A stretch of DNA of 64,000 nucleotides from Psammoneis japonica (lineage: Eukaryota): contig QPGO01000174.1 of the NCBI GenBank assembly GCA_008632985.1, positions 1 through 64,000 on the forward strand, in the 5' to 3' direction. Numbering within the stretch: position 1 is the stretch's first letter; each line of letters opens with the position of its first letter. Shown here piece after piece: positions 1,516-30,869 of this stretch. The position numbers and the translations under genes were made by a program. Under the pieces are notes generated by a model. The model worked only from the letters and a program-made list of their open reading frames with translations. It searched no databases and was not told the DNA's origin.

Positions 1516-1744
1516 GTTGTTAAATACCTAGTTGTCAGCTGCCAGAACTGGTTGACAACCTTCACGAGGGATTACTCGTACAGTTTTGTGGGTTTTGGTT
1601 TTGAGTGAGCGGTGAGCGTTGAACGGATCAATCTCAACGGCTAGGTTGGACACGTAGACCTACAGTAGTGCAATACAGTGGAGACATATAGGGCTATTGT
1701 GTTTATGTCGCAGACATCTTCATGACTTATTCGTTTATTCCCTA

Positions 1745-7560: not shown

Positions 7561-7853
7561 AGTGGAAAGTCAGCCTGGATGTCAGAAATCAAGTAGAACT
7601 TCGGTGCTCAAAGTGTAGTCAATCCTAGAACCTTGCATTGGGTATTCTTCAGGATAAAAAAATAGGACTGCTTTTCTGTTTATGATGTTACAATCCACAG
7701 TTTGTGGCCCTCGTAATCTGGTTTGGGATCAATCTACAGGCTCGCTCGTTGCATGTCTATATTATGTTACCATAGCTAGTCAGAGTCAACTTCAAATCGA
7801 TGAGATCTGTGCTGTCGTTGCAAATAGCCATGACGTCGGCAACTCTGCATCAC

Positions 7854-9068
7854 TCAGGGGGACCATTCTTCTTGGTCGACTCCATATGAGTTGTAAAAAT
7901 GGTTGAATCCATTGCTCTCCGAGGCATGTGTCCGCCTCGAATCGTCACAGGAACGCCACAAAGCAGTCACTCGCCCGATGTTGCTGTTGAAGCTCCCCAC
8001 AAAGTACGTGGCACTGATCAACAATTTGATGTCGGCCAGCAAAAACACGGTGTGTCCGCCATCTCGTGTCGTATCGTAATCACTCCGGGCCAACGTGTAC
8101 AGCGTACAGTTAATGGATGCCCTGCGTAAGGCCTCCGTCATATTGGGCACGACGAGATAGTCATCAGTGGCTAAATAGCAGGAACGAATCTTGGACAAGT
8201 CGTCAAAAGACAACCGATTGGTGAGTTGATCCACGTATTCTTGAGCTTCGAACGGTCTCGATTCTCGTAGAATCTTATCCCCTCGCCGTACATGGAAAGC
8301 CGCCGAGTGCTCAGAATCAAGCCCCTTTCCAAAGAGCGGAATTGACGCATTTCGTAAGATGCAGTCGATGCGCGCATGGATTTCCGGACGAATCTTCAAG
8401 TTGCACGCCAAAGGCGACACACTGCCATATAGGGTAATATTCGAACGCGTTTCTTCAAAATAGCCATGAATTTTACGGAGTAGCACAAAGAAAGTGTTCC
8501 ATTGTCGATTCGTCGACAGGGAAACGGTCACTATGGGCACTTCGTCTGAAGGTTGAAAACCGGGCCACCAAGCTTTTTCGATTGGAACAGAAGAATTCAG
8601 CGACTCAATAACAGTCGGCTTGTCCTGGACGTTATCCAGAACAGAAAAGTCTGTCATGAGAAAGCCCGTGCACAAGCCATGAGTGTTGTTTGGACGGTAC
8701 TGTTCAAATCGACTTTGATCCACTACTAAGGTTCGATTTGCCGCTTCCAAGAAATATAGCTGGAACAGTATGATTTGCATGAAAAGAGACCCGAAGCCGA
8801 GGTATCTCGTGAATCTTCCAAACTCAAAAAGAAAGACTTTTTGTTTTTTCATGAGAAGATCCTTGAAGCCACCCACTCCGGATAGCGTTATAGTTTCTGC
8901 TGTGTGATGCATGGTTGATGTATTCATCAAGCCAGCCGTCCTTGTTCCATTTTGCGAGCTTTCGACCATCAACGACGAGAATGGCTGGAGGCCGGGCATA
9001 AAGTAAACTCCGCGACTGGCCAAAATTAGAACAACTCCTACCACCAGTATTCTGCGGAGAGACTTCAT
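7854..9068 (-). CDS. Alpha-1,6-fucosyltransferase-like (GT23/FUT8-like) glycosyltransferase
   Basis: Intact ORF from ATG at 9068 (the track start is a GTG). N-terminal TM segment, 'LGFGSLF', 'FHVRRGDK', 'YLATDD', 'FVGSFNSNIGR'. Normal TpA. Confidence 0.8.
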   Translation of the reverse strand: MKSLRRILVVGVVLILASRGVYFMPGLQPFSSLMVESSQNGTRTAGLMNTSTMHHTAETITLSGVGGFKDLLMKKQKVFLFEFGRFTRYLGFGSLFMQIILFQLYFLEAANRTLVVDQSRFEQYRPNNTHGLCTGFLMTDFSVLDNVQDKPTVIESLNSSVPIEKAWWPGFQPSDEVPIVTVSLSTNRQWNTFFVLLRKIHGYFEETRSNITLYGSVSPLACNLKIRPEIHARIDCILRNASIPLFGKGLDSEHSAAFHVRRGDKILRESRPFEAQEYVDQLTNRLSFDDLSKIRSCYLATDDYLVVPNMTEALRRASINCTLYTLARSDYDTTRDGGHTVFLLADIKLLISATYFVGSFNSNIGRVTALWRSCDDSRRTHASESNGFNHFYNSYGVDQEEWSP

Positions 9069-11989
9069 ATGGTCGCTGACTACAGAAGGTAGCACTCACG
9101 TTGCATTCCTCAATATCTCTTGAGGATGTTCCTTTCTCTCAAACGGAACACTTCTACTCTCTACATGCTACTACTAGAGAGTGTCTGGTCTACCAAGCAC
9201 CTCAATTGAAGGTAAAAACCTCAATTGAGGCAGTTTTTCGACCCCCGTCGCTAAATCGCTAAAACCGTTGTTGCCCCCAAGTGACACCACAATGTTGTTC
9301 TCCATGCTTTAAAACCTCTAGGGGCAACAATTGGGGCAATTTTTTCATGTTCGTGGCCGGTTAAAGGAAAAGGGAAAAAAGGAGGGGATTCGACCGTTGA
9401 ACACACACACAAATTGACCATGCAACCAAGGCCAGAGTTGCACTGGCTTCTTTTGGTCCAGGGCAGTTGCTGCAGGTGCAAAGAGTGGGGCACATTGCAG
9501 CTGCAGGAGTGACAATGTGACGCTGAGTGTGTGCCACCAAGCTGAGCAGCCCAGCTTGGTTGTCAGCCAAGCCCTGCCAGGCCAGCTGCTGCCCTGGCTC
9601 CAGCTGTTCCTCCCAGCGTGCGCCGGTTGTTGAAGGAGCACCACATTGACTCAAAGGCTGTGTTTTAAGTGGGGCAGAGAGAAAAAACTGTCATCTCAAT
9701 TGGTGCTTGCTTCAGACCCTGCATCATGAGCGCAAGCTCCTCTTGAGAAATGAGCGAGAGAACAGCCATTTTTGGCACTTCTCTTTGGTTGCCCACTTGG
9801 CATTGCCGACAAATCTTGAACCCAATTTTGCTGACAGTTTCTTCACTCTTCAACCAAAAAAGCAGGCTCAACTTTTTGTTGGCTTCTTGTGGCTGGGGGT
9901 TGCTGTTGCAGGCACAAGTGGTGGGCACATGCCATGTGGCTGCTTCTTGGCAACAATGTGATGCCAAGCATGTGCCGCACACCAAGGAGCCAAGCAGCCC
10001 AGCTCAGCTTTGAATGGAGCCCCAGGACAGCAGCCAACTCTGGGTGATCTCAGCATGGTTTGCTTGTTCAAGCTGTGCTGCACTCACCCCACAATGCTCT
10101 GTGTTGTGGCGGCTTGTTGCAAGCCATGGCTCTGAGAAGTCAGCAGTCAGCCAGGGGCCCATCTTGCAAAGGCCGTGCATGTTGACCCTGTGCAAAGCTG
10201 TGTGAGGGGCCAGGCACAGGGGTTGCAATGATGGCTTCATGGCCATTGGCTCCAAGTTGGCATTTGATTGGGAGCCATTGCTGAGGGGCTGTGAAGTGTG
10301 GGGTTGGGAGCCCCTCACACTCTTTTTGTTGTCACAAATTGCTGCCACAGCTGTCTTTGCACTGCAGCCAGTCAGGTGCAGTTGGCCCCGAGTTGGCACT
10401 TGATTTGGAGTGACTGCCAAGGAGCTGTGAAGTGTGGGGTTGGGCAGTCCGGCCAGCTTGCACTCTTTGCTGACAGCAGAAAGTGCTGTTGCAGCTGTCC
10501 TTGCATTGTGGTGCCAGCCAGGCACACATGGCCAGAGCAGCCTTGGCACATCCTGCTGACAAAGCCAGCAAAAACAGTGACTCTTGTGGTTGAGCCAACA
10601 TGCAGGAGGTCTGGGCACACCCCTGGGAAGTCAAACAGGAAGGAGGGCTCAGCATTGCCACCAGCGCCAGGCAGACCACACAGCCCAGAGTTGGGTGTCT
10701 TGGCTGGCAGGTTGGAAAGCATTCTTGAGCACAGTCTGGCATGTGGGCAGTGCTGTCACCAAGAGAGCTGCTCTGCAGAGGAAGAGGGAAACAGGCAACA
10801 ACATTTTGCAAGAACTGTTTTGTCAATGGTCGGGTGGGATGGGGCAGCATCTAGACTTTGACGGAGCATTTGGCAGACAAAGATTGAGCACAGAGAGCTG
10901 TCCACTCAAGCCCCACAAGTGGCACATTCCAAAGGTGACACACCACACATGGGCCATGTGTTCATGCATCAACATGCCTCAAGCTGCAAGTCACATGAGA
11001 AACCACAACCAACCTTTCAACCAACCACCATCATGGACAGAACAGGGCAAGAGATTTGAAACAAGAGCGATTCATTGACTCTCTTCTTGTTTCATGCATT
11101 CAAGAGCTTCTTGTCCTTCTCAAATGTTTGTTGTGCATTCTTGTCTCTTTTAATTCAAGTGCAAAGAGGAGTCACTTTTCTTGTTTCTTTCTCTTGAGGG
11201 GTTGTTGGTTGTTGAGTGATGCAATTTTTGTTGTCACATTTTTGGAAATGTTGGCAAACCTGATCACTGCTTGATTGTCAACCCATTTGCTGTTTTGAGT
11301 CTCCATGGCATGAATGCCACAATTCCAGAGCCCTCAATTGTTTCATCAAACACAGTGCTTTGAAACACGTCCAACATCAACTCAACTCAGTTGAAATCCC
11401 AGTTTGTGGGCAATGAAAAATCACGAATGTCAAACAAATGGCTGCTTTCAACACATCAAGATCCCCAAGTTCAATCCAAATGTGACAACACACCTCAGAG
11501 CTTGTGGCCATGACACATGCAAGCATGCTTCATTGTTGTCATTGCATGCTCACATCGAAAGTGCCGATGGATCAAAGTTCAGGAAAAGGATGGCATGCAA
11601 ATTCAATTGTGCATTCATTGTTGGCATTGGCGCAATGACATTTGCGGCAGAAGCAATCAAAAATCCTTGTTCGTCATTGACATTTCTGTGTTGCTCAGAA
11701 TTTGAAATCTGACCACTGCCGTTGAGCATTTGGCTCTCTTTGTGTTGAAGTGGAAATGCACACTGGCCATTTGGCTTTTTTTGTGATGAAGTGGAAATGG
11801 CGCTTGACGATTTGCACTGACCATTTGGCTCACTTTGGCTCAAAGTCAGACAAAGAGATCTGGTTGTGGGCTTGTCATCAACCAGCCACGAGCATGAAAT
11901 CTTTACCACAATTGGGCTCTTCATTTGCACTCAACCACACATTTGCCTTCTTCACCTTGTTGGCATGCAAACATGTGCGTGCCAAAAAT

Positions 11990-12210
11990 GTGCGAATTTT
12001 GGCACTTTGGTGATGATGATGCGACCGCCATTTTGATTTGCGTGGCAAAGAGCAACACCTTTGATCAGATGACATTTCAGCTGATTTCCTGAGAAGTTGA
12101 CATTTGAGTGTCGATGGGCAGACTGACTGACAAATGTCATTTCCAGTGCTCTTCTGCACAATTTCTGTGCAGCAACTCTGAGAGTCACAATGACTCCCAT
12201 TGAAGTCTTG
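11990..12210. repeat. Dispersed non-coding repeat, also at about 38455-38530 (inverted), 39670-39800 and 39975-40110 (inverted)
   Basis: Shared blocks tgatttcc(t/c)gagaagttgacatt, cagactgac and ctgcacaatttct. Confidence 0.65.
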
Positions 12211-12789
12211 GTCAGCAGAAAAAACAACTGAGACATCAGACTCCATCTCTGCAACATCAGGAAAGCATCAAAGCCCTTTGTTCAAAGCAGTGCATGTGTG
12301 CTGGACTTGTTGCCCAATGCCACAAGTTGCAAGGACTGTGCACATGTCATTGGGTGCTGCCACCATGCCATCTGTGGTGCAAAACAACAAATGGGATGAC
12401 CCCTGATGAGTGACAAGTTGCAAGATGTGAGAAAAGATTCTGTTGGAATGCTTGAGTTGGAGGTGGTTTTTGCAGAACAGACAAACAAAGTTGCGGCAAA
12501 AAGACATGCTGACAACTGTGGACAATGTGGTGAGTTTGCATTCGCAGCTCAGTTTGAGTCATTTGTCTCATGCTCACTTTTTAGCTTCTGCACCTGGCTG
12601 AGGCAACATGGTGATGGTGGTCAACAGCAACAACAACATGATGTTTGCGAGCCATGCAGTGAGTCAGGAGTTGGTGAGACCAAATGTGTGCCAGTCAACA
12701 AGCCACAAAGCTCCAACACAGAAGCTGAAAAGGCATGGCATGACACTCAAAGGAGTGGTGTCATTGGAAGGTTAGGAAGTTGAGAGGTG

Positions 12790-14230
12790 TCCAAAGATCT
12801 CAGGGCTGGGAAATTGATGGGAATCCAAAGGATGAGGGCTGGAAATTTGAAAGGAGTCCAAAGGCATGCCTTGTGTTGACAGATTGCAGCAAATGAGCCA
12901 GCTGGATGAGGGTGAAGAAATGGTCTCTGCGGGCCTTGTTGTTGAAGAAATTGATGAGGGTCTGCTGAAGGAGGGTGTGGTGAGGTTGTGTTGGGGTCAG
13001 CAAGACACAGTGCCGTGCAGCTGTTGTCAAGCCGTGGAACTCAAAAGCAAGTCTCAAAAAAGACAGGCAAGGACACAGTGCCATGCAGCTGTTGTCAAGC
13101 TGTGGAACTCAAAAGCAAGTCTAAAAAAACAGGCAAGGATGCTGCTGAGCACAGAAGCACAAAAGAACCAAAGGAGGGAGTGTCTGAAGCCATTGCCAAG
13201 TCAGCATGTCAGGCAAGAAACTGCTGCACAGAAACCACAAGGAAGATCAGCCAGCATGTTTGGAGAGAACATTTGGGCTGGAGATGCAGGCGCTGGTGTC
13301 TCTGAGGCAAGAGAACAACCCAAAAGAGCTGGAGCATCCATTGGGAAGCACTGTGTTGGAAAAGGACAAGAAAATCTGACAGAAGGAATGCAACAACTGT
13401 GCACAACAGAGTGGGATCTACAAAATGCAGAAGGCAAAGGTTTTTGGCATTGTCAGGGGCAACATGCAAAAGCCATTTGTCACAAACTTGAAGGAGTGAT
13501 GGATTTTGGGAGATGTGTGAAAGAGTGGGATGTGGCAGCAGTGCTGTTGGGTGTTCTCAGGTTGATCTCATTTGATGAAAATGAGATGACAAACCTGCAT
13601 GTTTGGGCAGTCATCAAGGCCAGAAGCAGCTGGCACTTGTTTGTCAAGATGAAGGAGAGGCACTTCAAGATTGTTGCAATTGGTCCATGAGCGTTGTTGA
13701 GGCAGCAGAAACATCTTGTGGCAGGGTCATCCCAGAAGAAATTGTCAGGAAAGAAAATGAGTTCAGCAAGGATGTGTTGATGAGCAGCTCACATTGGGGG
13801 TTGACATTTGCCCCAATTCAGCCAAGGAGGTGCCAAAGGTGTTTGACAACTGCAGGACCAAGAAACCTGATGGCGCAATTTTTGTGCAGAGCAAAAACAA
13901 GCAGATTCAATGCTGGAAGTGCACCAAAGTTGGGCATGCAAGAAAGCATTGCCCTGACAGCAATCATTCATTGGCAGAGCCAGATGATGCGGGCCATGGG
14001 AAATGACAGAACAGTTGAAGTGGCGCTGGATGGCACATGGACACATGTGGGGGCAGCATGCCCAGCATTGCTCCAAGTGCATTTTTCTAAGTGGCTCAGC
14101 TTTCCAACAAGCAATTGACAGCTGAGTGCCCCAGCAGGATCTTGGAAGATGCCGCTTGAGCATCCTTTGGCACTGGTCAATTGAGCATGGCTGCATCAAG
14201 TGAACGGCGGCAACATCTCACAATGCTGGC
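12790..14230 (-). mobile_element. Possible highly decayed non-LTR retrotransposon RT (CRE-like)
   Basis: Weak remnants 'CCQGNAF' (QGxP), 'PLAPPWLNWGKCQ' (LxLNxxKC), 'TNGF..AFLLSDFL..PQ..LHL..KCSL'. Confidence 0.3.
13004..13138 (+). repeat. Tandem duplication of about 68 bp (2 copies)
   Basis: gacacagtgcc(g/a)tgcagctgttgtcaagc(c/t)gtggaactcaaaagcaagtct..aaaa..acaggcaag occurs twice. Confidence 0.9.
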
Positions 14231-14910
14231 ACCCAGAGAATTCTGCGTGTCTCCTTCCACAGTGATGAAAAACACTTGATGGCAGCAATTGTGGCACAGC
14301 AAGGCTTTAAAAAGCACAGTTTGTGCTCGACTTGAGCGCGTCATTTGTCACCAAGGAAGGGCTTTTTTCCAATGAAACAAACATCAAGAGAAACAAATCA
14401 AGATGCTGGCAGCTGTGAGAGCCTGGGTGGTGACATGTGCACTGCAAGAATGCTGTGGATGTGCCTTTTTTGAAAGAAGCAGTCAGGCAAAAGAGGTGAC
14501 ATGCCAATGATCAGTTTTCCTGGGATGCAAGTGTGCACAACAGTCATGCCAAAAGGTTGCGAAAAGCAGCACCCGAGAAACTGACAATCGGGGTGTGCAA
14601 AAGAAAACAAGAGGAGCAGAAATCAGCCAAAACAAAACATTGCCCAAAAGAAAGTTTCAAGGTGCAACGGAGAAGAAGAACAACACTGTGACACATGGAA
14701 GAAAGTCGGTGCCCAGGCTCTTGGAAGTTTGTCAGTTTGCTCGCCATTTGACAAAAAACACAGCAATCTTAATTTGAACAGCACAGTGGACATGACCGGC
14801 TGGAGCATGAGCACTTCACAAATCTTGTGACAAAACTGCAGCTTCAAGGTGTGACTGCACTTTCATGTGACAAAAGCAAGCTTGTCTGCCCCCAGCAAGC
14901 TCCTCACTCA

Positions 14911-16100
14911 TCATTTCAGCATTCCTCCCCCCACACCATCATTGAAGGAAAAACATTCTTGGATTGCACCCTGTCCATTTGCCAGTGTCGGCACCTTGGC
15001 AACTTTTTCATGCTCCATTGGGTTGGATTCTAGCATTTGAACACGCTCAAGAGCGGGTGTTGCATTGTGCATGTCACAAAGGACAAAGGCATCTCGATCA
15101 AAGAGTTGAAAAATGTTGCAAGTGCCACAACAAATGGGAGCACAACCCCCCTGAAAGGCCATTGATGTCTTTTCCATCATGCAGCTGTCGTGAGTGCTGT
15201 GTTCCATGACCAAACAAAACCTGCAGTCGTGGCAGGATTGAACGTTGTCGGCCCAGTTTGACAGGGTGATGCCCGTGTCAATTTTTGTGTTGTTTTCACT
15301 TGCAATGTGCACCTGCCCAAGCTTGGAAATCTTGTCACATGCTGCCTCACGAAACGGCACGCAATTGGATTGGCTGTAAATCACAAAGTGCTTCTTTGTG
15401 CTTTTTGGCTTTTGACTGTGATCAAGCAGCTCGTCATGTCCCTTTTTAAAAAGTTCAAACCACCAAACAAACTGCAGACAGCAAATTCGCAACACATTGG
15501 GATGAAACGTGTTGGATGGCACTGGCCCAAGGTGACAGACAAAGTTGTCTTGCAAAATTGGCATTTGCGAAACGAGGTTGACATCAAGATCTTCCCCAAT
15601 GGACAAAACCACTTTGCCTTGAAAGGAATGCCTTGTCCAGTGTTCTACAATGGCCGCACAAAAGCCACCATTGGTCAACTGAAAAAGATCATGTTTGTGT
15701 GTGACATGCTTTCCTTGCAAATCTTTGAGCTCTTTGCCTTGAAATCTGCCTCGTCCCACATTTTGCAAACTCTTGAACAAGTGCTCAGGTGGCACATCTT
15801 GGAGTGCATTTTGGAATTGATCGTTTCCGTTGTTGTCACCCGCACAAGCAAACATGCGTGGTGCAGATTCAGCAATGTTTGCTTTCATTGCTGTTGTTGG
15901 TGTTGCTGCAACAGTCGTGGCGGCATTGTCCTCGTCATTGTCTGGCCACAAAGATGTCAACCAAAAAGCATTGAGAATCAGAGAGCTGAAAACTGTCAGT
16001 GCCAGGAAGAAAACCAAAAGTTTCTGACACAACACTGGAAAAGGGGTTTTGTTCAAAATCCGTTGTTGGGGAGACTTGGACTTTGTCCTCATGATTGCAG
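14911..16100 (-). pseudogene. Hypermutated alpha-1,3-fucosyltransferase (GT10) gene, frame still open
   Basis: TM anchor near the N-terminus. 'DCRFCLVMEH....SCMMEKTSMAFQGGCAPICCG' matches the GT10 motif YxFxLxxEN..YITEK..AF..GxxPIYxG with Tyr replaced by Cys. One Tyr seen in the 449-aa ORF. Confidence 0.8.
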
Positions 16101-16499
16101 TTTGCTTTGTTTGTGGGCATTGTTTCAAGCAGCAAACATCAGGCCTCGAGTGACGAGCATGTGCGGCGGTTCCCGGTTCCCGGATGTTGATGACGGTGAC
16201 GGTGCTCTTGCTCATCCCGGTTTCAAAACATTTTTCAAAACACACTTTCAACTTGTTCAATGACCAAAATGACCCTCAAATGACTGTTTTGTGCATTCTG
16301 TGCATTGCAAACACAACAGCCACAAACAACAAGTGATGTCAAAAAATGTTCGGAACATCCACTTTCCGTTGACATGAATTTGTGCGGTGTGGGCGCAAAA
16401 TGCACACGCGCGCAGGATGCAGAGCGAGGATGAAAACACAGTGCAGCATGGCATGAAGTGCTGATCCCAAAGTCTCATGATGGTTGTGTCAAATTTTGG

Positions 16500-17698
16500 G
16501 AACCATGGAATGCACAGGGAAACACTGCACCCGGATTGGCGTCACATTGATTTTAGTGCAGGTGGCTCATCTTGCTTCTGTTCAGCTTGCTTGCCTTTTT
16601 TGATGCAGTTTTCCAGTCCTCAGTGATGAGCAACACTCAGCTGCACTTCTGAATTCTGCCAAGAAAGTTCAGAACACAAACACCCATGAAAACAGAACGT
16701 TGGTGATTTTGATGGGAAACTTGCAATGTGGTGAGCTTGCATGGGAAACCCTTTGCACAGACATGTGTTGGATGCAAATTCAGCTGATCTGGCTCTGTTC
16801 ACCCAAGAGCCCACACAGCAATGTCAGAATGCATCCATCCTGCTGAGAGCAAAGCACATTTACAAACACCCAAAGTGCGATGATTGGGCTGATGCTGTTG
16901 ACATGACAAATGGCACAGCATGGCGCGGGCGTTTGTGCCCAATCTGCAACAAGAAGACTGCAAAGCTTGGAGGCATGGGAAACTTTAGTGGGAGTGGCAC
17001 AATCACATTCATGTGTCGATGGTTCATCTCACAACGCATCAAAAAACTTGAATGGATGAAGAAGTGTGATCGCTTTGTCATTTCACGAACTGATCATTTT
17101 TGCACAGCCCCCCATGACCTCTCAGACCTTGACAATCATTGTGTGTGGGTGCCAGCAGGAGAAGACTGTGGGGGGAAATGTGATGATCATTTGTGGTGAA
17201 CTCAACCTTGGTCTTGAAAGCTCTTGATGTGCTTCCACCAATCATCAAAAACCCAGAAAAGTTTGAAGCGCAACTGGCTTCTTTTTTAATGCACTCAACT
17301 CGGAACAGCTCCTTGCGGCACGCTGGGGACAAGAGGGGCTCATGGGTTCTGTGAAACGTTTTCAACAAATGATGTTTGTTTGTGGTGTTCCTGGAGACCA
17401 AGTCAGAATGAACCCCCTCCAAACTGTGATGGAAGAGGGAGTGCAGCCCAAGTGTGGGGCAGAATGTGCCCTTGCCAAATCGACAGGTGAGATGCAAATA
17501 GACTGTGGGTGTCCTGGTCATTGCAGCTCTCTTTCACTGAGCAGTGTTGAAGGCAAAATGCCACGTTCGTGCATGGAGCAGATGCAGCATGTGATGAAAA
17601 AGCACAAGATGAGTCAGAATGCATCATGTGTTCATGCGGCAGATTCAAGAGCTTGTGGACCCGAGTGCAACCCAAATCTTTGTGTTGCCGCAACTTAA
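16500..17698 (+). pseudogene. Hypermutated, frameshifted putative glycosyltransferase gene with C-terminal Cys-rich module
   Basis: 'HVLDANSADLAL', 'GSGTITFMCRWF', 'KCDRFVISRTDHFC', 'VWVPAGEDCGG.CD' (expected YDRFVxxRxD and EDYGGxxDR). Ends in 'CGCPGHC...CGPECNPNLC'. Confidence 0.65.
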
Positions 17699-18379
17699 AG
17701 AATGCATGGTGGAGAAATTGAGCATTGCAAATTTGAGCCACCACAACACTGTGCACACTCACCCAAGAACAATCAATCTAAAATCAACAGTCACAACACT
17801 TGAAGAAAACCACAACTGTGACAATTTAATGTTTTGGCTAGAGATCTTGATTGGCCCTCTTGTTTTTGGCATGAGGAAGTGCGGAAAGTCCAACTGTGGC
17901 ATGGAATTGGCACGACCTGTGCACACCGGGTGGGACCTGTCAGCATGCACTGCATCTTGTCTCCTTGAGCATGGTGGGAACTCAAGAACCTGCTGCATTG
18001 TGCATGCCAACATCGTGCAACTGTCTCATCACTTTGCTTGTTTGTCCTCCCATGAAGATCTGGTGTGGCGCTGGTGCAAAAACTGGACCAACATTTTTGC
18101 TGAGAGAGACTGCCAGTGGTGGGGCATGGCCAGCAGGTGGGAAAGGTGGGGGCAACCAAGCTGTCTCTCAGAGGCTTGCTGCCAAGCTCTTCAGAAGAAT
18201 TTTGAGGAGTGTCCACGATGAAAACCTCACCTTTTGCAAATGCTTTGGCAGCAACAGCATCTTCAAACTTGGTGGCAGGAGCATTGTCCTTGAGTGCCAG
18301 AGTCTGGCTGGCAGGCATCTGCAGCTCAATGCCACAAAGCAGTGGCATCAAAGGAGGAGTCTGTGGCACACCTCTGGGT

Positions 18380-20120
18380 GCTCAGGAACAGGCAGATGCA
18401 GGGCTGGACTGTCAGCAGGTGAGCTTGTGTTTGTTGCTCTTGTCCTTGTGTGCAACTGCCCTGCAGTCTTGCGGTCACTGCGCTTGCATGACTGACAAAG
18501 ATGACAAGCCAGCCTGTGTCACCTGCTGGAGAAACACACCACTGGCAACAATTTTTGTTGAGCTGAAGGAAGTCCTTGAAGAGTGCACTGCAGCTCCTCA
18601 AAATGATCAAGCTGTGGTGGGTGATTCTTCATCAAGCCACAACGGCATTTCATCTGAGCAGGAAGGACACAGCCCCATCAAACAAGATGCTCTTGACCAA
18701 TGTGTGCCCATCTCCACAGTGCCGTTGAACAATGCCAGGTTGCTTTGTGTTGCTTGGAAAATGCCAGCCTTCCAAGCAACTGGAAAATGGCAAACCTCTT
18801 GCTGTCCAGCACAACACACACTTGGTGCCAGAAGGATCAGGGAAGGGGGGGGAGGGGCTTCAATGTGTTTGCAATGGCATCTTCAAACCAGCTGGGTCCA
18901 GGCAAATGCACAGCCAAGCCTTTGGAAATTTCTTCTAAAGAGCAGCGCTCACAGAACCCACAACTTCAGGTTTGTCACAGCAATGATTTTGCTGCAGAGC
19001 TTGTGCACACTCAACTGTGTGGGTCCAGCATGTTGCACAGTTTCCCCCCATCAAACATGTGGCTTGCACCAAGGCACACACAGATGATGCAGCAAAACAA
19101 GCGGGTGCTTTTCAACNNNNNNNNNNNNNNNNNNNNNNNNNNNNNNNNNNNNNNNNNNNNNNNNNNNNNNNNNNNNNNNNNNNNNNNNNNNNNNNNNNNN
19201 NNNNNNNNNNNNNNNNNNNNNNNNNNNNNNNNNNNNNNNNNNNNNNNNNNNNNNNNNNNNNNNNNNNNNNNNNNNNNNNNNNNNNNNNNNNNNNNNNNNN
19301 NNNNNNNNNNNNNNNNNNNNNNNNNNNNNNNNNNNNNNNNNNNNNNNNNNNNNNNNNNNNNNNNNNNNNNNNNNNNNNNNNNAAGCTGTTTTGGCACAGC
19401 TGTGTCAATGAGTGTGTGTCTTGTTGGCTTGAAAAATGCGTGTGGTTGACAAATGATGAAAGACGGCCACAGATTCACATTTGTTTTGTCATGCTTGGGT
19501 GTCAAAAGAGCCAGGTTGGTCGAATTAATCCCGTTGGACCTCCCTGTTGGGGGAGTGAGCGGTCTGGGCCCACAAGCATGTGATCAACGAGAGCCAGGGT
19601 TCTGCAGTGCTGCACAGCAGTGAGATGTCTTTGCAGCAAAGACTGCGTGCAATGGATGCAATCAAGTCAGCATGCGTTTTGCTGTCAAATGTTTTGAGTC
19701 GATTCCTTGCCAGAATGTCAGGCTGAACCCAACAGTCATGCACCCCTGCATGCCGCAAAATTCCCCCCATGATGTTGTGCTCTTGCTCCCTCTCTCTCTC
19801 TCTCTCTCTGTCTCCAGTGGAGGGAGTCACAGTTGAGACAACATGAGCAAAAGGGATTGGTTGAATGTAAATGACATTGAGCGACCACTGACACGGCGCT
19901 GCTTGGTCCGTGCCATCTGGTCAGGGTTCGTCCTTGCTTTCCTTGTGACTGAAGCCTTTCTTTGTGCTTCCGTGTCGATGCAAGAGCCTGCATTGATGCA
20001 AGAGCAAGAGCTCAAATTGGTCTTCTTTGCCCAGCAGGAATCCCATTTGGCACTTGTTAAACAGACAGTGGAGGTTCAAGCAAATGGGATCTGTCCCCAC
20101 AGCGGGAATCACCCTTGACC
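18380..20120 (+). pseudogene. Possible heavily decayed membrane-anchored gene (perhaps exostosin-like) spanning the assembly gap
   Basis: Hydrophobic segment 'VSLCLLLLSLCA' followed by a stem-like region. Only faint motif resemblance. Confidence 0.25.
19117..19382. other. Assembly gap (N run)
   Basis: Run of n characters. Confidence 1.
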
Positions 20121-20230
20121 CACAATTGACTTCCAGAAAAGTGTTTTCATGAGGGTCCTTTTGTCATTGCTCTATAGAATCGTGTGCTCACACATGCTTT
20201 CCCGCCGAAAATGAGAATGACAGCAGAACA

Positions 20231-21844
20231 TTGCAGTGGCTCATTGAACTAAGAATGTTCATTTGCGTTGTCATTGACCACATGGTTTGGTGCCATCATT
20301 CTCATTTTCGGCAATGTCATTTTGTGTGCAACATTAAGAAGATGATTCCCATCTTTTTCTTGTCCAACGCACATGAAAACACTTTTTCGATCTGGAGTGA
20401 CTCCCGCCATGGGGACAGATCCAAGCAAATGACCCATTTCCTTGGTGGGGTGATTCCAGTGGAATTGATGTTGAAGCGATTGCAGCGTTCTTCAAAGTGT
20501 GGAGGTCAAAGACCAACAAGAACATGGATTTTCTGCATCCTCATGAGATGTGTCCCATTGGAAATGCCACTGCATTGTTTGGCCTGCCCACAGACCCCAA
20601 TGAAAACAATTCCAGTGAGGAGGGAGATCCAAAGGTTTGGGCAGAAATCTCCGCTAAAAACACTCGACGACTCATCCCAAACAGACTAGATCCAGGAGAA
20701 AAACTGCTTGTTGGTGCACTTGAGATGCTCTGCAATTCCATTTTTCACAAATGGAGCAGACTCAAGCAGGTTGCACTGACGTCTGGGCTGCCAATCATCA
20801 TCAACTGTGCAGACTGTCGAGGATGCAGCAAGGAAAACCTCCTGTTCAATGGGACCACATGCAGCACTCCAATCTTTTCCCTTTGTTCTGCATTCAAGGC
20901 AGAATCGTGCAATCGTGCATTTCCATTGCCAACATGTTTCGTTGTTGAGCATGCAAGGGGCAGTTCCAAAGAGTGGGATGCTGTTTTTGGGGAACAAGAT
21001 TTAACGCACCCTTGGGAAAACGAAACCAGCTGTGTGGAGAGGAACGAATTCAGGGTTTCCCAGTCAGGAAGACTGTCTTCGCCACAGAATGGCGCAAGAA
21101 GCATCCAAACACCAAGATCAACTGTTTGACATTGGACATGTCACAAGGGGAGCAGAATCAACATTTCGTTGTTCCCGGATCCCCTTTGAGGATTTTCAAA
21201 CCTGCAGAGCAACACTTGATGTGGACGGGAACTCGTGGTCAGGTCGTTTTGTCAAGCTCATGTCAATGAATTCTGTCGCAATAAAGGTGGAGCCGGAGTT
21301 TACTGATTTCTTCATGCCACAGCTTCAACCTTGGGTTCACTGCGCACCAGCACGGGCTGACATGTCGGATCTTGCCAACATTACAAAGTTCGTCCTGGCA
21401 GACAAGAATGCACCAAGAATGAAGAAAATTGTTCAGAATGCATGTGATTGGTCAAGGGATTTTTCTGTCTACAACAATGTGGTGGAATCAATCCTGCCCA
21501 TCTTGTCATTTTATGTGGAACTGCTGGACAGGAACAATCCTCATTGGGAAGACGTGTGGCGAAAAAACCTGCAACAATTGGTGAAGCCAGAGTTGAATTG
21601 GGCTGCGACTTGGTCAACCGAGGGACGAGAGAACATCAATTGCAGATGCCCTCAAACTTGCAACAAGGATGCATTGAGCAACAAGAGGAACAATCTTCCC
21701 TTCAGTTGCCAGCAACGCATCTGCTGCATGATGTCCACACATGGAATGTCTCAGAGTGAATCGTGCATCCATGCAAGCAATCCAGATTCTGGCGCATGTG
21801 GACCCGAGTGTGACCCTAACCTCTGCACAGCAACACAGACATGA
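20231..21844 (+). pseudogene. Hypermutated, frameshifted GT90 (CAP10/POGLUT-like) glycosyltransferase with C-terminal Cys-rich module
   Basis: 'FQTCRATLDVDGNSWSGRF..LMSMNSVAIKVEP....F...LQPWVHCAPARADMSDL' matches GT90 YxxxxDxDGNxWSxRF...PWVHYxPV. Frameshift near 21030. Confidence 0.85.
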
Positions 21845-22959
21845 CAGCCTGCAAATGATCCAGTCAGTGAGAGTTGCAGCCTTCACTTCAGTTCAGACAA
21901 CAAGAGTTGAGAGGGCAGTGACTGCCGACTTCTGCAGCAAAGTGTGCTTGACAAATTAAAAATGAAGTCAGCCTTCTCCCGGTTTGATGTTTAAGTTTTC
22001 AAGAAGCACCACCAAACAGTCCGTTCGTTCAAATCCCAAAACCTTCAGGGTGTGTCAAATGATTTACAAGCAGATGTTCTGCCAGTGCAAGGCCACCCAC
22101 GCCCAATGATCCCAGGCATTTCAGATGACATGTCCGATGCAGCGAATTCCATTGCTTTGGCTGGTGTCAAGAGCTGGACTTCTCTTGATGTCTCCAACAC
22201 ATCCCAAGATGGCGCCAAAGCACCACAGAAGAATCTGTCGGACAGTCAAGCTCCTCCTGCTCCCCAGCTCCCACTGATGTTGGAGTGCCCCCATTCAAAA
22301 CCTTTGTTGATTCATCCACCACCAAACCTCCTCCTGCTGGCACAACTTCAGACCTTGCCAATCATGCTTCAGACGTGGCTGACTTGAAACAAGAAATGGC
22401 TTGAATGAAACAGGACAATGAAGCCAGACTTGCCAGAATTGAGGAACAACACCAGCAATCTGTGGCCACACTCCAACATGATCTTTAGTGTGAGCATCAA
22501 ACCCAAAGGGACAACCTGGTTGAGCAAATTCAGGCATTCCTCCAAAAATGCCTTCCACCTCCCGACTCAGAATCTGAAACATGTTCATCTCCTGTGCACA
22601 AGAAACCTGCAGCTTTGGCTCCAGCTGGTGCCTCTGCTGAGCAGCCCCCGGATGCATCAATGATGGACATGGCTCAAGAGGACTCGCATTTTAATGGGGT
22701 GAACCAAGTCATCTTCTTTGCCCAAAGCAGTTGATGCAGACAATGCATCTTCTCCAGTCTCCCTTCAAGGGAGCACAGCATCATCATGAGGGGACTGCCC
22801 CTTCACCCGCAGTTGCTCCGCTGCAATGCAGGGGACCCCTCTGAACACGCAATCACCTGCATCCCTTCAAGAAGCTGCCCAACAATGGAGTCACATCCCA
22901 GATGGATGACAGCATTCTCTTCCTCCTCAAACTGTTGACTGTTCAAATCTAAAATCAAG

Positions 22960-25160
22960 TGAAGATTGGCGACCTGTTGGGTCCAAAAGCTCCAGAAACT
23001 GCTCGTCCATGTGTGCTCAATTCAAGTGGTTGTTTGTTTGACTCTCTCGGCAGTGATTTTAACTCCTGCTGCCAGGTTGTTGATGAAATTCAAGCTGATG
23101 TCATCGGCATGTCAGAAACTTGCTTGGATGCCTCCCAACCCTCCACAGCCAAAACAAGCAGGTTGGTTGTCAAGAACACCCTTCATCACAGACGCATGGT
23201 CTTCTCTGCATTCTCTGCCCCATGATTCACAACACCTCACAAACCAGGTGGCACTGCTGTTGTTTCTTGCAATTCAGCAGAATTCCAACACTGCCTCAAG
23301 ATGGCAGATCCACTGGGATGCTGGGCTGTTCAAATGTTTGATGGAAAGCAGGGTGGACAGGTCATGTTTGTCTCGTGCTGCCGAGTGTGTTCTGACAACT
23401 CTTCCACGGCAGGAAAAACCACAGCTTGTGCCCAACAAGTGAACCCACTGCACCAAGAACAAGGCAGAGCACAGCCTGAGCCGTGCCACACCTTTTGTTG
23501 CAACACAACAAGAATGCTCAAATCATTCTTGGATGAACCGAATTGTGAAGTCATCCTGTTTGGGGATTTCAACACTGACTTCCGGCATGATGCTGATTCC
23601 TTGGCATGCTGCCTTGGCAATGAGGTTTAAACTGTCGGACATGATGTTTGGCCAGATGCAAGACCTGGATTTTGCCGCTCACTTGCATGGATGCTGCCAT
23701 CTTGATTGTGTCCTGGCTGCACCTGGTGCTCTTGAGGCTGTGACAGCTTGTGGATGTGAACCTTTTGGTTGCAGGATTTTGTCAGATTGCCATGCCCATT
23801 TTGTGGATTTTGACATTGAGGTCCTTTTTGGAAACATGTCAGTTGGCATTCCTTGCTCTGCTCATTGGACTCTTTTGACCAAATCACCAAAGCATGTTGC
23901 AACCTGCCTGGATGCTGAAACATTTCAGCTCACAGCAAAGCCCCGCTGCTTTCTGAGGACCCAGATCATCACTTGGCAGAACATCTCAACCGCAACATGG
24001 CACAATTTTGCATTTCAGCTGCAAAGCACTGTCGTCAATGTCAAGAGCCAGAATGGTCCAAAAAACTTGCCGACTTGCACAGGAAAGTTTTTGTTCTTTC
24101 TCGGCTTCTCTCCATGTTTGAGAACAAGACCACTTTTGTGGATTCGATCGTCCATGCAAAGTGCAAGCTCAAGGAATCCTTTCTTCTCCCAATCACCACA
24201 GAAGAGTGTCAAACCTCCCTTTGTTGCACTCAATCCAAATGCAAGAAAGTTGCTGGAGCAAGTTTGCACCACCGAGAATTAGAAAGAGATGCAAAGACAG
24301 CAGACTTGGACATGGAGGGCACCCCTTCATCTGCCAAGGAAGCAAAAATCCTCCAAACCATGAGATGTGCTGAAGAGATCACCAGAGTTTTTTGCAAGAT
24401 CAACACATTTGCAGATGAGGATGGCTCCAGTGTCAGCAAAGTTCAAGTCCTTGAAAATCTGTTAGATGATCCCATGACATGCAACAGCTGGGCAATGATC
24501 GACGCTCCACAAGACGTCGTGGCTGTCTTGACTGCTTGGAACCAAAAGCATTTCGGCCAGGCCCATGGCACCCCACCTGCAATTCCTCCCCTGCAGATTG
24601 ACTTGGGATGTGAAAGCAACACTGTCATGGCTGAACTTGTGCTCGATGGTGACCACTCCATGACCAGCATGACAGAAGCAACAGCTCTTTTGACCAAGCA
24701 TCTCTGCAGATGCACCCCTGTTGCCACATCTAATTTCCTGATGGCCGACAACATCCGTGGTGAATTTCAAATGTGGGCTGAATCCACTTTGACATTGATC
24801 AAGTCTGGACTGCATTTGGGTCACTGGAAAGCCATGCATTCCAAGCATGTGCATTCAACAGCAACGGATCCACAAGGTGCACCTGCCACTCGGAATCAAG
24901 AGCTTGATGAAAATCAAGAAATGTTGCAACAGATTTGATTGAACCTTCTAAATTGCACACTCAAATGGGGACATTCCTTCAACAGGTGGCAAGATGTCAT
25001 CAACATCATGATCTTTAAAGAGCCTGGCAACAAAATGATCCACCGGCTCCATGTCATTCACATTCATGAAGCAGGTTTTCAATTGATCACCAGCATCAAG
25101 TGGCGGGCCCTTGCACAACACATGGAACATGATCGCTTGTTCAATCCTGGCATGCATGGC
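22960..25160 (+). mobile_element. LINE ORF2 remnant (AP endonuclease and RT N-terminus), 3'-truncated
   Basis: 'DVIGMSET', 'KPGGT', 'DPLGCW', 'VSCCRVC' (SAYR), 'ILFGDFN', 'LDCVL', 'SDCH..FVDF', 'SGLHLGHWKA', 'KEPGN..IHRLHVIHIHEA' (IHIYEAD). Confidence 0.85.
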
Positions 25161-25169
25161 ACTGGAGCT

Positions 25170-26000
25170 TTCTTGTGTGCCCAAACTGTGAAATGCTTGA
25201 GTGTCCTGACAACCTTTCTCTTCTTCCTTGATGCATCTGCATCATTTTGTGGATGTCAATGAGCACTTTTATTTTGTGGCCTTGGTCAGAGCTGTGACTC
25301 ATGCTGCAGTCTTTGGCTCATCTCTGATCTTCTTGACCATTGCATCCCATTTTGTGATGGACTCTTCCCTTGTGTTCTCTGACTTCTGTTTCAGTTCTTG
25401 TGCAGACACACCTTCCTCCGACGGCTCTTGCAGATCTTTCTGGAGCAGCACAAACACTCTCTTGTCCTGGTCATCATTCTTTTCAGCTGTTGTTAGATCT
25501 GGCTTGACAGTCTTGCACAAGTCCTTGCTTCCCTCTTGGTCCATCAGGCCTCTGTCTCATCAACCAACTCCACATCGCAATCCAATGTCAAAGTCCCATC
25601 CTTGTTTGGGCTCTTGCCAAGGTGCGCGCTGCACCCATCCTCCAGTCCTTGGAAGTGCACTCTTTCCAGCATGTGTCTCCAACAATCAGATGCAGCGTGC
25701 AGTTGCAGAACACTGTCTGCAAAGCCAGGTTTCCCAGGCAATCTTGGAATCTTTCCGCGAACGGCAAGATGCCATTGTCGTCACCACAGCAAGCACAAAG
25801 AGCTTCATTTGCAGCAGGGAAAGCAAGTGATGACACTGTCAGCAATTGCAATGGCTGCTCTTGTTGCACCCTCCATTTGATGTTTCCTTGACATGTTCTC
25901 TCACCTTTGCTGTGTTCTGCATGACCTTGGCATGATCCACCATCATCCATTCAGCAGAGCTTGTCTGCTGCTCCACAATGACCATCATCCCCGCTGCTGC
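25170..26000 (-). repeat. Decayed coding repeat of unknown family, homologous (inverted) to about 45000-45800
   Basis: 'ALCACCGDDNGILPF.ERFQD..L.LQTVFCNC.L.LIVGD..WK' vs 'VLCACCNKNNCILPL.E.FQD...TLQMVLCNCLL.LVVGDVHWK'; 'DCDVELVD' vs 'DCNVELDD'. Confidence 0.65.
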
Positions 26001-26199
26001 TGCAGTGATTTTTCCGGTGTGCCCTGAAGCACAGCACACTGAAGCAAGGTGACAGATGTGGTTGAGTGAGTCTTGCAGATGATGCGCGCACGACGGTTGT
26101 CTTTTTCCCTTCTTTGTGTTTTTTTGCTTGCCCAAAAAGGGTGTTTCCCCTGTGTTTTTTTTAATTTGGCTGCACATCTTCATTCAAATTTAAATGGAC

Positions 26200-26784
26200 C
26201 CTCCATCCAATTCAAAGCTGTGCCTCTTCAATGTCTGAACATGTGAACCGCAGGATGAAAAAACACGCCTTCTTGTCATTTTTCAACTTTTTGCAAAAAT
26301 CACATTGCCAAAAAGTGAAAAAATGGCCAAAACTGGGTGCCATTGTGAGAAAAGTTACACCCTGACGGCTCCAATGAGAATCATTTTTCTGCATGATTTC
26401 TGCATGGCTCATGCATGAATCACAGCACAACAGATGAATTTTGGTGAAAATGTTGAAGATTTGTGTGTGTCCAATGTTTGCACCACAGAGCACAAAACAA
26501 TTGCTCCAGATGTTTTTTGGCAGGTGTTCCACCTGCATGAGATTCATTGCCAATGTGCTGTCGCACAATCAGTCTTGAGTTTGCAGAGGGGATTTACAGT
26601 GCATGTTCCATGAGGACTTGAACGCCACCAAAAAAACCATTTGACTGTTCATGCACCCAACACCTGCAAAAACGCATCCACACAAGCATCTTTTTGTGCA
26701 AATTCCACATGCATGAGAGACACACAATTTGTCATGTCCAAAATGAGTTGTCATTTTGTGTGTCACCTGGGGCTGGAGCACATC
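26200..26784 (-). mobile_element. MITE related to the 33470-34036 element (left end not resolved)
   Basis: Right end reverse complement gatgtgctccagccccaggtgacacacaaaa matches 33470 ggcgtgttccagccccaggtgacacacaaaa. Internal homology of 26420-26470 to 33780-33830. Confidence 0.65.
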
Positions 26785-26799
26785 ATTGGCTGCTTGGCA

Positions 26800-28480
26800 G
26801 CACAGATGAAGTGTGGCAATGTGGAGCATCGGTGCACTCTGTTTGAGGCAGAACGGCTGTCAGCTCATGAAGATGGAGGCAGGGGGTTGGATTGATGCTG
26901 TTGTGACAGAGGGCAGTGACAGAGCAATCCTTGGCACAAAAGTTGTTTGTTTCAAGGTTGACTTTGATGCTTGCAAGTGGAAGCTGTGCCAATGTGACAA
27001 CCTTCCTGATGGGTGCTTGACCCCATCCAAACTTTGCCACAGTTCACTGTGGATTGCAGGCTTGCTGGATGATTTGAAGGCCCAGGAAGATGGCAAAAGG
27101 ACTGTTGGCCAGCTTGAGTCTGTCCGCTGAAGGACAGACATCCAATGCTTTCTTCCACTCGCCAACCACTGACTCCTGATTTCCCCTCAGCCCACAAGGT
27201 TGTTCTGTTGTCATTGTTGTTGTTGTTGTTGCAACAACAATGGGAGGACTGGGCCCACCTGTGGTGCACCCCACTCCCTGCCATGCCGCCAGTTGCTGGT
27301 GGTGCCACCATGGGTCAACACAGCCACAGCAACCCTGGCCACAGCAACCACAGCAATGGCTGCAACAGCCCTTGCCACAAGAAGTGGCACAACAGCTGCC
27401 ACCTGCCCAGCCTGTGCTGATGGCACCTGCACGGCAGCACCAACACTGGCCCAGCCAGCCTTTGGACCTGGATTGGGGGACAACGTGCCACAGCTTGTGT
27501 TGCCTGTGAAACCCCCCTTCAAGAAAACGTGCCCGGCGCACCTCCCAAGAATTGGCTGCCACAGTTTGTGATGCAAAACACACCATCACCCCTGTGTTCT
27601 GAGCTCTGTTGGTTGAAGAGCCCAGTGCTCCAGCAGAACACCTGGGCACTGCACATGATTGTTGCTGCGCAGTGCACTGTCCAGCCCCTTTGACGATGGG
27701 AGGAATGCCCGCGCACTCATGGGGGATGCACACAATGGGCAAGCTCCACAATCCATGACCTGGCCCTGAGATGCCTGCCACACTGTTGATGCTGCATGCA
27801 TGCCTTCACCCCAGCTGATGGACTGGCTGCTGGTGTCCGACCCTGCACCAGAAATGTCGAGACCATTTGACCCAACAACAGCTGGGCTGAGGTCACTGAG
27901 ATCTGCTGCGCTGTTGCGCCAGCCCCAAACAAGCACTGCCTGGCACCACTTGTCACTGGCCTGCCCCCCCCCCCCAGCATGCATGGGAAAGGCTCAGAGG
28001 AGCCATGGCAAGTGAAGGGGGGTGACAGACTGCCAGCCCTTTGCTGGCCAGCTGCGCTGGCTGCACGCTCCCCTGCCATGGTGCCAGCCAGCCCTCATGA
28101 TTGGTGGTCTGGCCACCAGCTCTTCCACACATCTCAGCACCTCAAGACTGGCAAGCTGCAAGTGCGTGCTGCTGCACACTGGTTTTGCACAACTTGCCGG
28201 ATCTCCTCGCTGCTGCCCCCCTTGCAGCTGGGGCGCAACAGACACAGCCCGAAAGACTCAGCGCCCTGGCAGAAGACCAGCAGCAGCACCTGAGAGACTT
28301 GCCTCCCACTGGTCCACATGGCCATGGCACATGCCAAGAAGGGGGTGTGGGGGACTTGCTTGAGGAACGACCATCCACTTCAGTGTTGTCATTGTGAAGC
28401 TTTCCCCACACTGCTTGACGAGCTTGCCCAAAAAATTTGCCATGCCAGTCATTGTGCTGGTGCAGCAATGTCGCAGTGAC
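26800..28480 (-). mobile_element. Possible decayed DIRS-like gag fragment
   Basis: GC-rich and TpA-free, with Ala/Pro/Gly-rich frames loosely like 30870-32170. No catalytic motif seen. Confidence 0.25.
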
Positions 28481-28686
28481 CCCTCAATTTGCAAAATTGG
28501 CATAGACTAACTGGGAGAGTGTGTCCATCCACTCTGCAGGGATTGGTACAAAATCCACACAACGGATGGCGTGACGCAAGGGCATGCCGCCGGTGCGGGC
28601 ACTTAGGCTACTTCACGAACAGAAGCAGGGAACGAACGAACAAAGGCCTCCACTTTGCCTGCACAGCAAAGTGGATCTGATCTGCC

Positions 28687-30312: not shown

Positions 30313-30589
30313 CCCAACATTTTTTACTTGCATGAACATGTATGCAGAGACATGAAGCCATGATGCTCCACACATCCAATCTCGTCAGAGAGATCTGTCA
30401 CCTGCAATGGAACGGCAAGGACGATTCTTGTGCTTCTGAACAGCTTGGACCCATCAGCAGTTACGAGAGGGAGGCAATCTTGAAAAGACAGATGTTAGAT
30501 GATGTGCTAGACCTTAAGTTCTTGTTTTTAAAAAAGCAACTTTGGCATTTTCTGTCTAGAAGCCTCCAGCTAAGGTAAAACACTTCTAA

Positions 30590-30644
30590 TTTTTGTGGTC
30601 CCGAGTGCAAGCCTGGTGTCTGTGCCGCCTTGCTTTAACCCACT
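30590..30644 (+). repeat. About 55-bp duplicate of the GT47 gene 3' end (30265-30318)
   Basis: ttttgtggtcc(t/c)gagtgca(c/a)gcctggtgtctgtgcc(a/g)ccttgc(c/t)ttaaccca occurs at both sites. Confidence 0.9.
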
Positions 30645-30869
30645 GAGTCCAAAGAAGTGCAAACCCACAATGCCATGTTTGTGCCTTTTGAGTTTGTGAG
30701 CATTTTGCTCCCACAGCCTTTGCGGCCAAAGAAAGCATGCCGGCATGTCTGTGGAGCCGCGCCAGCAGCCAACAAAGCAGCGGCAATTGCGCCCCTGCTT
30801 GATTTTTCATGAGTGGCTTGCTGCGCAACTCAGAATGCACAGCTTCAACATGCTGTGGCATGAAATTGG

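Follow-up and report, generated by a model that had tools for sequence, protein, structure and literature searches.

What becomes of ordinary cellular genes when the DNA in which they lie loses nearly all of its TpA dinucleotides? The question is raised by positions 14,911 to 21,844 of the first 64,000 nucleotides of contig QPGO01000174.1 (that whole 64-kb stretch is hereafter called the window, and its coordinates are used throughout), where a first-pass annotation saw host-type glycosyltransferase (GT) genes caught in a TA-free domain and recoded by a mutator. We consider it likely that three genes of a Golgi-type GT cluster survive in the segment as remains, and that, lying in a silent chromatin domain, they were rewritten in place by two context-specific transitions, one striking TpA and the other CpG. 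The genes in question belong to families GT10 and GT90 and to a catalytic family that could not be assigned (gene 3).

A domain stripped of TpA and CpG

The window alternates between two states, and about three quarters of its length is nearly without TA. In the TA-poor state, 1-kb bins hold 0–11 TA per kb, which corresponds to an observed/expected ratio (o/e) of 0.0–0.18; CG o/e is 0.09–0.6, and TG and CA stand at 1.5–2.0 (one bin with an N gap excepted). The domain with the three genes had been described as TA-free, and the count upholds this: 60 TA remain in 18,671 bp of positions 9461–28397, with a TA o/e of 0.03–0.10 and a CG o/e of 0.13–0.44. Between 14 and 22 kb there are 1–9 TA per kb, compared with 44–49 per kb in islands of normal composition. 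The features on which the argument turns are as follows.

9461–28397, no strand: TA-poor, CpG-poor domain with three gene relics, the longest TA-poor stretch of the window
14863–16092, minus strand: relic of a GT10 (alpha-1,3-fucosyltransferase-like) gene, with its ATG at 16092–16090 and the family's native stop at 14865–14863
14913–14908, minus strand: a pair of adjacent in-frame TGA stops in place of the Gln-Arg of relatives; homology runs 14 codons further
15306–15307, minus strand: in-frame loss of eight conserved residues, which in relatives read H-G-G-R/K-C-x-G-x, with Cys in 98% of 50 homologues
16557–17698, plus strand: relic of gene 3, in five pieces (16557–16652, 16604–16846, 16735–17199, 17187–17354 and 17267–17698)
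17474–17683, plus strand: Cys-rich C-terminal domain of gene 3, matched by tblastx to 30088–30297 (80.8 bits) and to 21623–21781
19117–19382, no strand: gap of 266 N between gene 3 and GT90
20401–21844, plus strand: relic of a GT90 gene, its N-terminal part in frame 20401–21129 and its C-terminal part in frame 21005–21844
21005–21025 (about 21010–21020), plus strand: frame change within GT90, where ...HPWE is continued by KTKPAVWRG in the next frame, at a GGGAAAA run
21282–21512, no strand: "TA patch" with five TA (21282, 21301, 21382, 21470 and 21512)
21623–21832, plus strand: Cys-rich C-terminal domain of GT90 (tblastx, alignment A2)
28681–30309, plus strand: intact GT47 gene in a TA-normal island (PF03016, 55.6 bits), used as the in-window comparison
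30088–30297, plus strand: unmutated copy of the C-terminal domain, within the GT47 gene

The lost dinucleotides can be accounted for. TA, CG, TG and CA together amount to 242.8 per kb in the genes of the TA-normal islands (n = 5), 241.7 in GT10, 245.9 in gene 3, 233.5 in GT90 and 240.7 in each flank, and relative to the island genes GT10 has lost 37.0 TA and 28.7 CG per kb and gained 64.7 TG plus CA. Because the gain in TG and CA approximates the loss of TA and CG, transitions from TA to TG or CA and from CG to TG or CA account for the composition of the domain, and the original composition of the relic genes resembled that of the island genes.

The GT10 relic

The GT10 assignment holds. HMMER returned 496 homologues at E ≤ 0.001 from a library of 1.84 billion representatives, the best of them (P0002) with E = 2e-108 and 50% identity over residues 90–454, and tblastn found 192 of 414 residues (46%) identical over a span from 16041 to 14866. 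The Pfam score falls just short: the minus-strand frame 14911–16275 reaches 23.4 bits on PF00852, below the gathering cut-off of 23.9, which all six GT10 relatives scanned pass with 32.7–45.5 bits. Given that unmutated relatives score in this range, the shortfall would fit erosion of the gene in the window. A word-indexed protein search with the mutated frame gave no match among 1915 candidates. Read by eye, a hydrophobic stretch follows the likely start ATG at 16092.

The frame had been described as still open, and indeed, at 454 codons from stop to stop, it is exceeded by no other frame of the domain (the 99th percentile is 206), but the two in-frame TGA codons stand before the end of the homology, and eight conserved residues have been deleted. 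By codon enumeration, CGA to TGA is the sole route by which the two processes can make a stop. Metagenome loci of GT10 relatives (80 kept of 146) are of ordinary composition, TA being normal in all 20 that were profiled (o/e 0.64–1.00). None of the 80, a set outside which the contig that carries P0002/P0152, the closest relative, falls, encodes a relative of 11 other frames of the window, so these loci showed no synteny.

Recoding of the GT10 protein

The protein of the window, read through with X at its stops, was aligned with 50 homologues of 380–560 residues drawn from the top 78 matches, 28 fragments or fusions being left out. It agrees with the family at 46 of the 62 columns that are conserved in at least 80% of these homologues. 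At the eight Tyr columns conserved to this degree the window has six Cys, one His and one Tyr, and opposite the 20 aligned Tyr of P0002 it has 11 Cys, four His, two Phe and one each of Tyr, Arg and Lys. The change from Tyr to Cys or His that had been proposed is thus found at seven of eight conserved Tyr and at 15 of the 20 of P0002; the relatives carry Tyr at those sites and do not share the Cys or His, so the claim of recoding stands. The overall composition has moved with it: Tyr makes up 4.7% of the homologues (minimum 2.8) and Cys 1.7% (maximum 2.5), whereas in the window Tyr is at 0.2%, Cys at 4.4% and His at 4.1%. More widely, five frames of the segment have 0–0.7% Tyr, and the five island genes 2.8–4.0%.

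Reversal of the two transitions recovers most of the changed residues. Turning TG or CA back to TA restores 11 of the 15 changed, undeleted conserved columns, and turning TG or CA back to CG restores one more; among five control reversions, three explain none, one explains a single column and the fifth explains six, but it makes an identical base change in TGT codons and is hence not independent. The alignment, like the pair of LTR-like ends described below, shows that the sites struck by the TA process were formerly TpA, and the two processes together changed about 6.5% of the GT10 bases. Changes derived from TA comprise Tyr to Cys or His, Ile to Thr and Leu to Ser, and those derived from CpG comprise Thr to Met, Val to Met and Gly to Ser. 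The predicted recoding of Ile (ATA) to Met or Thr therefore holds in part: Ile to Thr, by way of ATA to ACA, occurs at two conserved columns, but Ile to Met is absent from the conserved GT10 columns, where the gains of Met (Thr to Met, Val to Met) are CpG transitions. The change of Val (GTA) to Ala, which had also been expected, is found at no conserved GT10 column.

The effect on a presumed functional site can be followed residue by residue. The relatives have G-Y-V-T-E-K, with Tyr in 50 of 50 homologues, and the window has S-C-M-M-E-K; the Y-x-T-E-K motif, which we take to be the donor-binding motif of GT10, is thus not intact. With ancestral codons deduced from the family, the change from G-Y-V-T to S-C-M-M would fit one TA and three CpG transitions.

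The GT90 and gene 3 relics

The GT90 claim is confirmed by Pfam: the C-terminal frame 21005–21844 scores 59.7 bits on PF05686, where the cut-off is 24, over profile positions 158–378 of 396. Matches in PDB are POGLUT1 (6.3e-8) and POGLUT2 (1.5e-6), and a word-indexed protein search, covering the longer-length class only, gave one match (P0001). The upstream frame has no Pfam match even at E ≤ 10. The GT90 domain is not confined to one reading frame, and the break is reproduced in a contig of run X1 (record 7), which matches 20884–21282 with 0 differing letters and 0 gaps. As in GT10, a Tyr of the relatives has become Cys, W-V-H-Y being W-V-H-C in the window. The patch of surviving TA in this gene had been taken as a sign of partial processing; in 5000 random placements of the 60 TA of the domain, 24% put at least five TA into some 231-bp window (P = 0.24), and the patch is within chance.

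Gene 3, whose pieces were joined by eye, is a real coding relic, but what ties it to glycosyltransferases, as had been suggested, is solely its C-terminal domain. No family was found for its main part in Pfam (even at E ≤ 10), PHROGs or PDB, and the Atlas gives a lead only (DUF7796 on 21% of one cluster, rank 7, score 0.94). The domain, of about 70 residues and with the pattern C-x-C-P...S-C...C-G-P-E-C-x-P-x-x-C, is common to gene 3, GT90 and GT47, which are otherwise unrelated; alignment A2 of the three copies has 22 invariant columns, seven of them Cys, and no Pfam family covers it. The single Tyr of the unmutated GT47 copy (R-I-E-Y-M-M) has given way to His in gene 3 and to Cys in GT90.

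A possible fourth GT gene found no support, for no frame between 17.6 and 20.4 kb, a stretch that includes the 266-N gap, matched any family. A frame in this stretch (18206–19087, plus strand) and another at 13761–14006 (plus strand) have the string DDKPAC in common, and the latter also has a CCHC-knuckle-like pattern, C-W-K-C-x-K-x-G-H-x-x-x-x-C; both strings were seen by eye, and Pfam reports neither. They may be remains of a gag-type gene.

Mutation of DNA in place

A retrotransposon of the window records when the changes arose.

46863–52573: Gypsy-type retrotransposon, with reverse transcriptase, RNase H and integrase at 47501–49393 on the minus strand; TA-free, CpG o/e 0.54

Its ends, which resemble long terminal repeats (LTRs) of about 180 bp (46863–47041 and 52391–52573), are 91% alike. 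Their roughly 13 differing columns comprise one CA-versus-TG double mismatch, two TA-versus-TG columns, four at CpG and five others. The double mismatch is the mark of one ancestral TA struck on different strands, and since LTR-like ends are identical at insertion, the changes arose afterwards, on DNA in place. RNA editing before retrotransposition, considered as a route to TA loss, misfits both the single-copy genes and the differences between the LTR-like ends.

The segment of the GT genes also varies between sequences. Across 14500–22000, about 1% of the letters differ between the window and the contigs of run X1 (10 of 1017 in record 1, 23 of 2530 in record 2), and 84 of 98 differences are transitions. 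The 40 that were viewed comprise 20 exchanges between CpG and TpG or CpA, five between TpA and TpG or CpA, eight other transitions and seven transversions; that five lie at TpA although TA is nearly exhausted speaks of polymorphism and is not a de novo rate. As the window and X1 versions are both TA-free, erasure is older than their split, and decay continues. An assembly artefact as the source of the frame changes was rejected, since X1 contigs match 16039–18568 and 20884–21282 ungapped (X1 is possibly the source sample of the window). The summed depth of X1 contigs reaches 168–281 at 20022–20523 and at 21277–21527, where the second interval overlaps the TA patch, compared with about 54 otherwise; these two parts seem to be present in further copies in the run.

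Spared islands and the aim of the mutator

Five islands have escaped (1–1900, about 7100–9400, 28450–30700, 36450–39300 and 53600–56650), with an overall TA o/e of 0.50 and an overall CG o/e of 0.88 (range of CG 0.88–0.97). Each holds one intact intronless gene, and sparing reaches a few hundred bases past each frame on both sides. Besides the GT47 gene, these are the following.

313–1527, minus strand: Fringe/GT31-like gene (an Atlas lead), island 1
7857–9095, minus strand: FUT8-like gene (Pfam, 24.6 bits, below its cut-off)
37218–38429, minus strand: methyltransferase gene (31.2 bits)
55087–55971, plus strand: gene to which the Pfam scan gives no family

Sparing follows transcription units and includes the non-coding flanks of the island genes, so protein-level selection cannot explain the islands. 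CpG depletion marks the same domains as TA loss, and mutation probably follows silent, CpG-methylated DNA; the island shape of the protection favours a rule based on state, that is, on chromatin. The two kinds of loss have progressed to different degrees. TA loss is equally complete in the gene relics, in the Gypsy element and in the surrounding and intervening DNA, but CpG o/e is 0.32–0.44, 0.54 and 0.13–0.24, respectively. That CpG is half decayed in relics already saturated for TA suggests rapid saturation by the TpA process and a silencing of the relic genes later than that of their surroundings. The pattern is compatible with a spread of silencing across the gene cluster.

Other features of the window lie apart from the GT relics. 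The minus-strand frame 2356–4170, 605 codons long and TA-free, has no Tyr, 7.1% Cys and 5.5% His, matches no Pfam family and probably represents one more hypermutated relic of a gene. A diverged tandem repeat, formed by 36123–36567 and 36405–36924 and 76% alike over 525 columns, lies at the border of a TA-free domain. The GT47 island gene is 35% identical to P0180, the sole relative found, in which a reversibly-glycosylated-polypeptide domain (PF03214, 209 bits) is fused to GT47.

Known parallels and a proposed course of events

Fungal repeat-induced point mutation (RIP) turns C to T at CpA and yields TpA and stop codons; in Leptosphaeria maculans it reportedly leaks into neighbouring single-copy genes. 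Like the processes in the window, RIP saturates silent or repeated DNA with context-specific transitions, leaves domains beside gene islands and is able to ruin or alter ordinary genes, but its chemistry is opposite, TpA being nearly absent from the window and the TA process unable to make stops. Deamination of 5-methylcytosine, the CpG decay of methylated transposons, has its likeness in the CG o/e of the domain (0.13–0.44, compared with 0.88–0.97 in islands) and in the half of the viewed X1 differences that are of CpG type; it accounts for the CpG part only and leaves TpA untouched. Deamination of adenosine gives inosine, which is read as G, and adenosine deaminases thus offer a chemical likeness, although an RNA route before reverse transcription would not give the changes in the LTR-like ends.

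A process with the same target has been described in Bigelowiella natans, where, in two integrated viral regions, all but one of 231 de novo mutations were A to G or T to C, every GC-biased one at TpA (10.64898/2026.01.13.699255). According to this preprint, the genome has clustered windows poor in TpA and rich in CpA and TpG, and the candidate enzymes are polynucleotide adenosine deaminases (ADAT2/3, ADAR), among them an ADAT2-like one, ADARs preferring U 5' of the edited A (10.64898/2026.01.13.699255). No other account of TpA-destroying hypermutation was found in the full-text literature searched. The likeness to the case of Mettrop et al. extends from the TpA target to both products and to the loss of TA with gain of TG and CA in clustered 1-kb windows; the regions struck are silent or degraded, and domains of transposable-element (TE) type are enriched in TpA-depleted genes. 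The differences are also several. The victims there are viral, whereas here they are GT genes of cellular type, and neither the ORFs nor the viral contigs scanned point to a viral target of the TpA process; the region from a nucleocytoplasmic large DNA virus (NCLDV) there has a TA o/e of 0.45, whereas the window is near saturation over about three quarters of 64 kb. TA loss is coupled with CpG depletion in the window, whereas "CpG" occurs 0 times in the main text of the preprint. Sparing takes the shape of islands here; the named relatives here suggest a diatom-like host and not a chlorarachniophyte; and de novo rates were measured there, whereas the window is read as sequence.

We posit that the GT genes fell into a silent chromatin domain or were swallowed by one. 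Nearly all of their TpA has become TpG or CpA, about half of their CpG has likewise become TpG or CpA, and ordinary decay has left stops, a deletion and frame changes. By analogy, the TpA process is probably the same kind of localized A:T to G:C hypermutation as in B. natans, and its chemistry could be deamination of adenine on one or the other strand of TpA, which is a palindrome. The process may be aimed at silent, CpG-methylated DNA or merely not barred from it, and islands round working genes would be spared.

Alternative explanations

It had been proposed that the mutator could inactivate or diversify glycan genes. The mutator has rewritten these genes, but living recoded genes are unsupported in view of the stops, the deletion and the frame breaks, and the idea that they are alive, diversified into Cys/His-rich variants with new glycan specificities, strikes us as scarcely credible. 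It could appeal to the length of the GT10 frame, the longest of the domain with its 454 codons, and to the 46 of 62 strongly conserved columns that are retained. Open frames are, however, uninformative under such a spectrum: enumeration shows that TA to TG or CA erases TAA and TAG and makes no TAA, TAG or TGA from sense codons, so that frames stay long because stops cannot be created, and openness carries little weight. In the six frames of the domain, 926 of 1028 stop triplets are TGA, and a frame of 333 codons lies open even antisense to GT10 (15262–16263, plus strand), a side effect of the loss of TAA and TAG. A Tyr invariant in 50 of 50 homologues is lost together with six more conserved Tyr; GT10 lacks a conserved segment and has two in-frame stops, and GT90 and gene 3 are broken in frame. 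Nor has function left its trace in the pattern of loss, which at replacement sites is as complete as in the non-coding flanks: TA stands at 3.3 per kb in the GT10 coding sequence and at 2.1–2.7 in the flanks, and as it is no better kept in the former, selection gave no shield. With high probability, GT10, GT90 and gene 3 are, on the reading of their sequences, relics and not working recoded genes. GT10 is a true coding relic and, because it has few mutations of other kinds, probably a young one.

If the genes are relics, they might still be foreign, or might have been struck because they had copies. That they came in with an integrated giant virus or some other foreign element, and were hypermutated as foreign, we judge very unlikely, even though the sole published case strikes integrated NCLDV and virophage DNA, the relic genes are intronless and among the Atlas neighbours of gene 3 are clusters with a mostly viral label (a lead only). 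Among the relatives of GT10, P0003 is a transcript from Chaetoceros, P0019 a transcript from another marine eukaryote, and P0007 is encoded on a contig of 1.75 Mb; no viral hallmark family occurs among the 25, 82 and 127 open reading frames (ORFs) scanned, at a sensitivity lowered by the mutation load, and scans of viral contigs with gene 3 and GT90, which need near-exact 8-residue words and are therefore weak, gave no relative. The nearby unmutated GT47 gene carries the same C-terminal domain as the mutated genes, so spared and struck genes are of one kind, and diatom clusters predominate among the Atlas neighbours of the gene in island 1. The transcript relatives and the lack of a viral family in the scanned ORFs thus support the host type that had been claimed. 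A mirror image of RIP triggered by homology, a genome defence outside the fungi in which the block from GT10 through gene 3 to GT90 is the hypermutated twin of an intact cluster elsewhere in a diatom-like genome and the unmutated versions in X1 are that twin, is unlikely, though some observations speak for it. Among 72 X1 pieces, 19 are 90–95% alike to the region, and a share of 0.17 then continue unlike the window; a loose end at 15771, in register (19 of 30 letters), keeps TA and CpG, and its product is ...DVLPEY..., as in the family consensus, against ...DVPPEH... in the window; a further one, at 16754, has two letters fewer and reads through the frame break of gene 3 with a TAC codon; and X1 depth exceeds its baseline of about 54 at 15504–15754 and 16508–16758. 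Further unmutated copies of the family would, to judge from these pieces, exist in run X1. The other copies retain TA, however, whereas sensing of the RIP kind would be expected to strike both partners, and the GT10 loose end, 63% alike over 30 letters, may be an old paralogue. Positions 14.9–21.8 kb have no repeat within the window, X1 depth is flat (about 54) across most of the region, and the hypermutated NCLDV region of B. natans is reported as single copy in the preprint. A rule based on chromatin better suits sparing that goes by individual transcription units.

Several points weigh against a silenced cluster of host genes rewritten in place. Over its 1.2 kb GT10 shows no frameshift, and the residues that it lacks were removed in frame, so that it may be a gene that died recently or is weakly active; apart from the one near 16755, the frame changes in gene 3 come from reading by eye with no homologue as a guide. 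The silence of the domain is an indirect reading, and its methylation is read from CpG depletion alone. The window has one recognisable transposon, 25 kb off, and no TE source has been identified beside the genes. The diatom-like lineage rests on few named relatives, and the agreement of X1 with the window is not independent if X1 is the sample from which the window was assembled.

Implications

Taken by themselves, the relics are ordinary casualties; their value is that they would show a mutator that hits host genes, keeps open frames and respects active transcription units. The newly described TpA hypermutation would thus strike ordinary cellular genes, with a saturating rewrite of Tyr to Cys or His that leaves frames open, and the phenomenon would reach past viral inserts and, if the lead on lineage is true, past chlorarachniophytes. 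Gene finders will annotate such relics, and frames that lack Tyr and are rich in Cys and His offer a simple warning flag. The spared islands of transcription units and the coupling to CpG are clues to targeting at silent, methylated chromatin, and, since the GT genes and the Gypsy element are saturated for TA when their CpG decay is half done, the two processes could serve as two clocks with which to date silencing.

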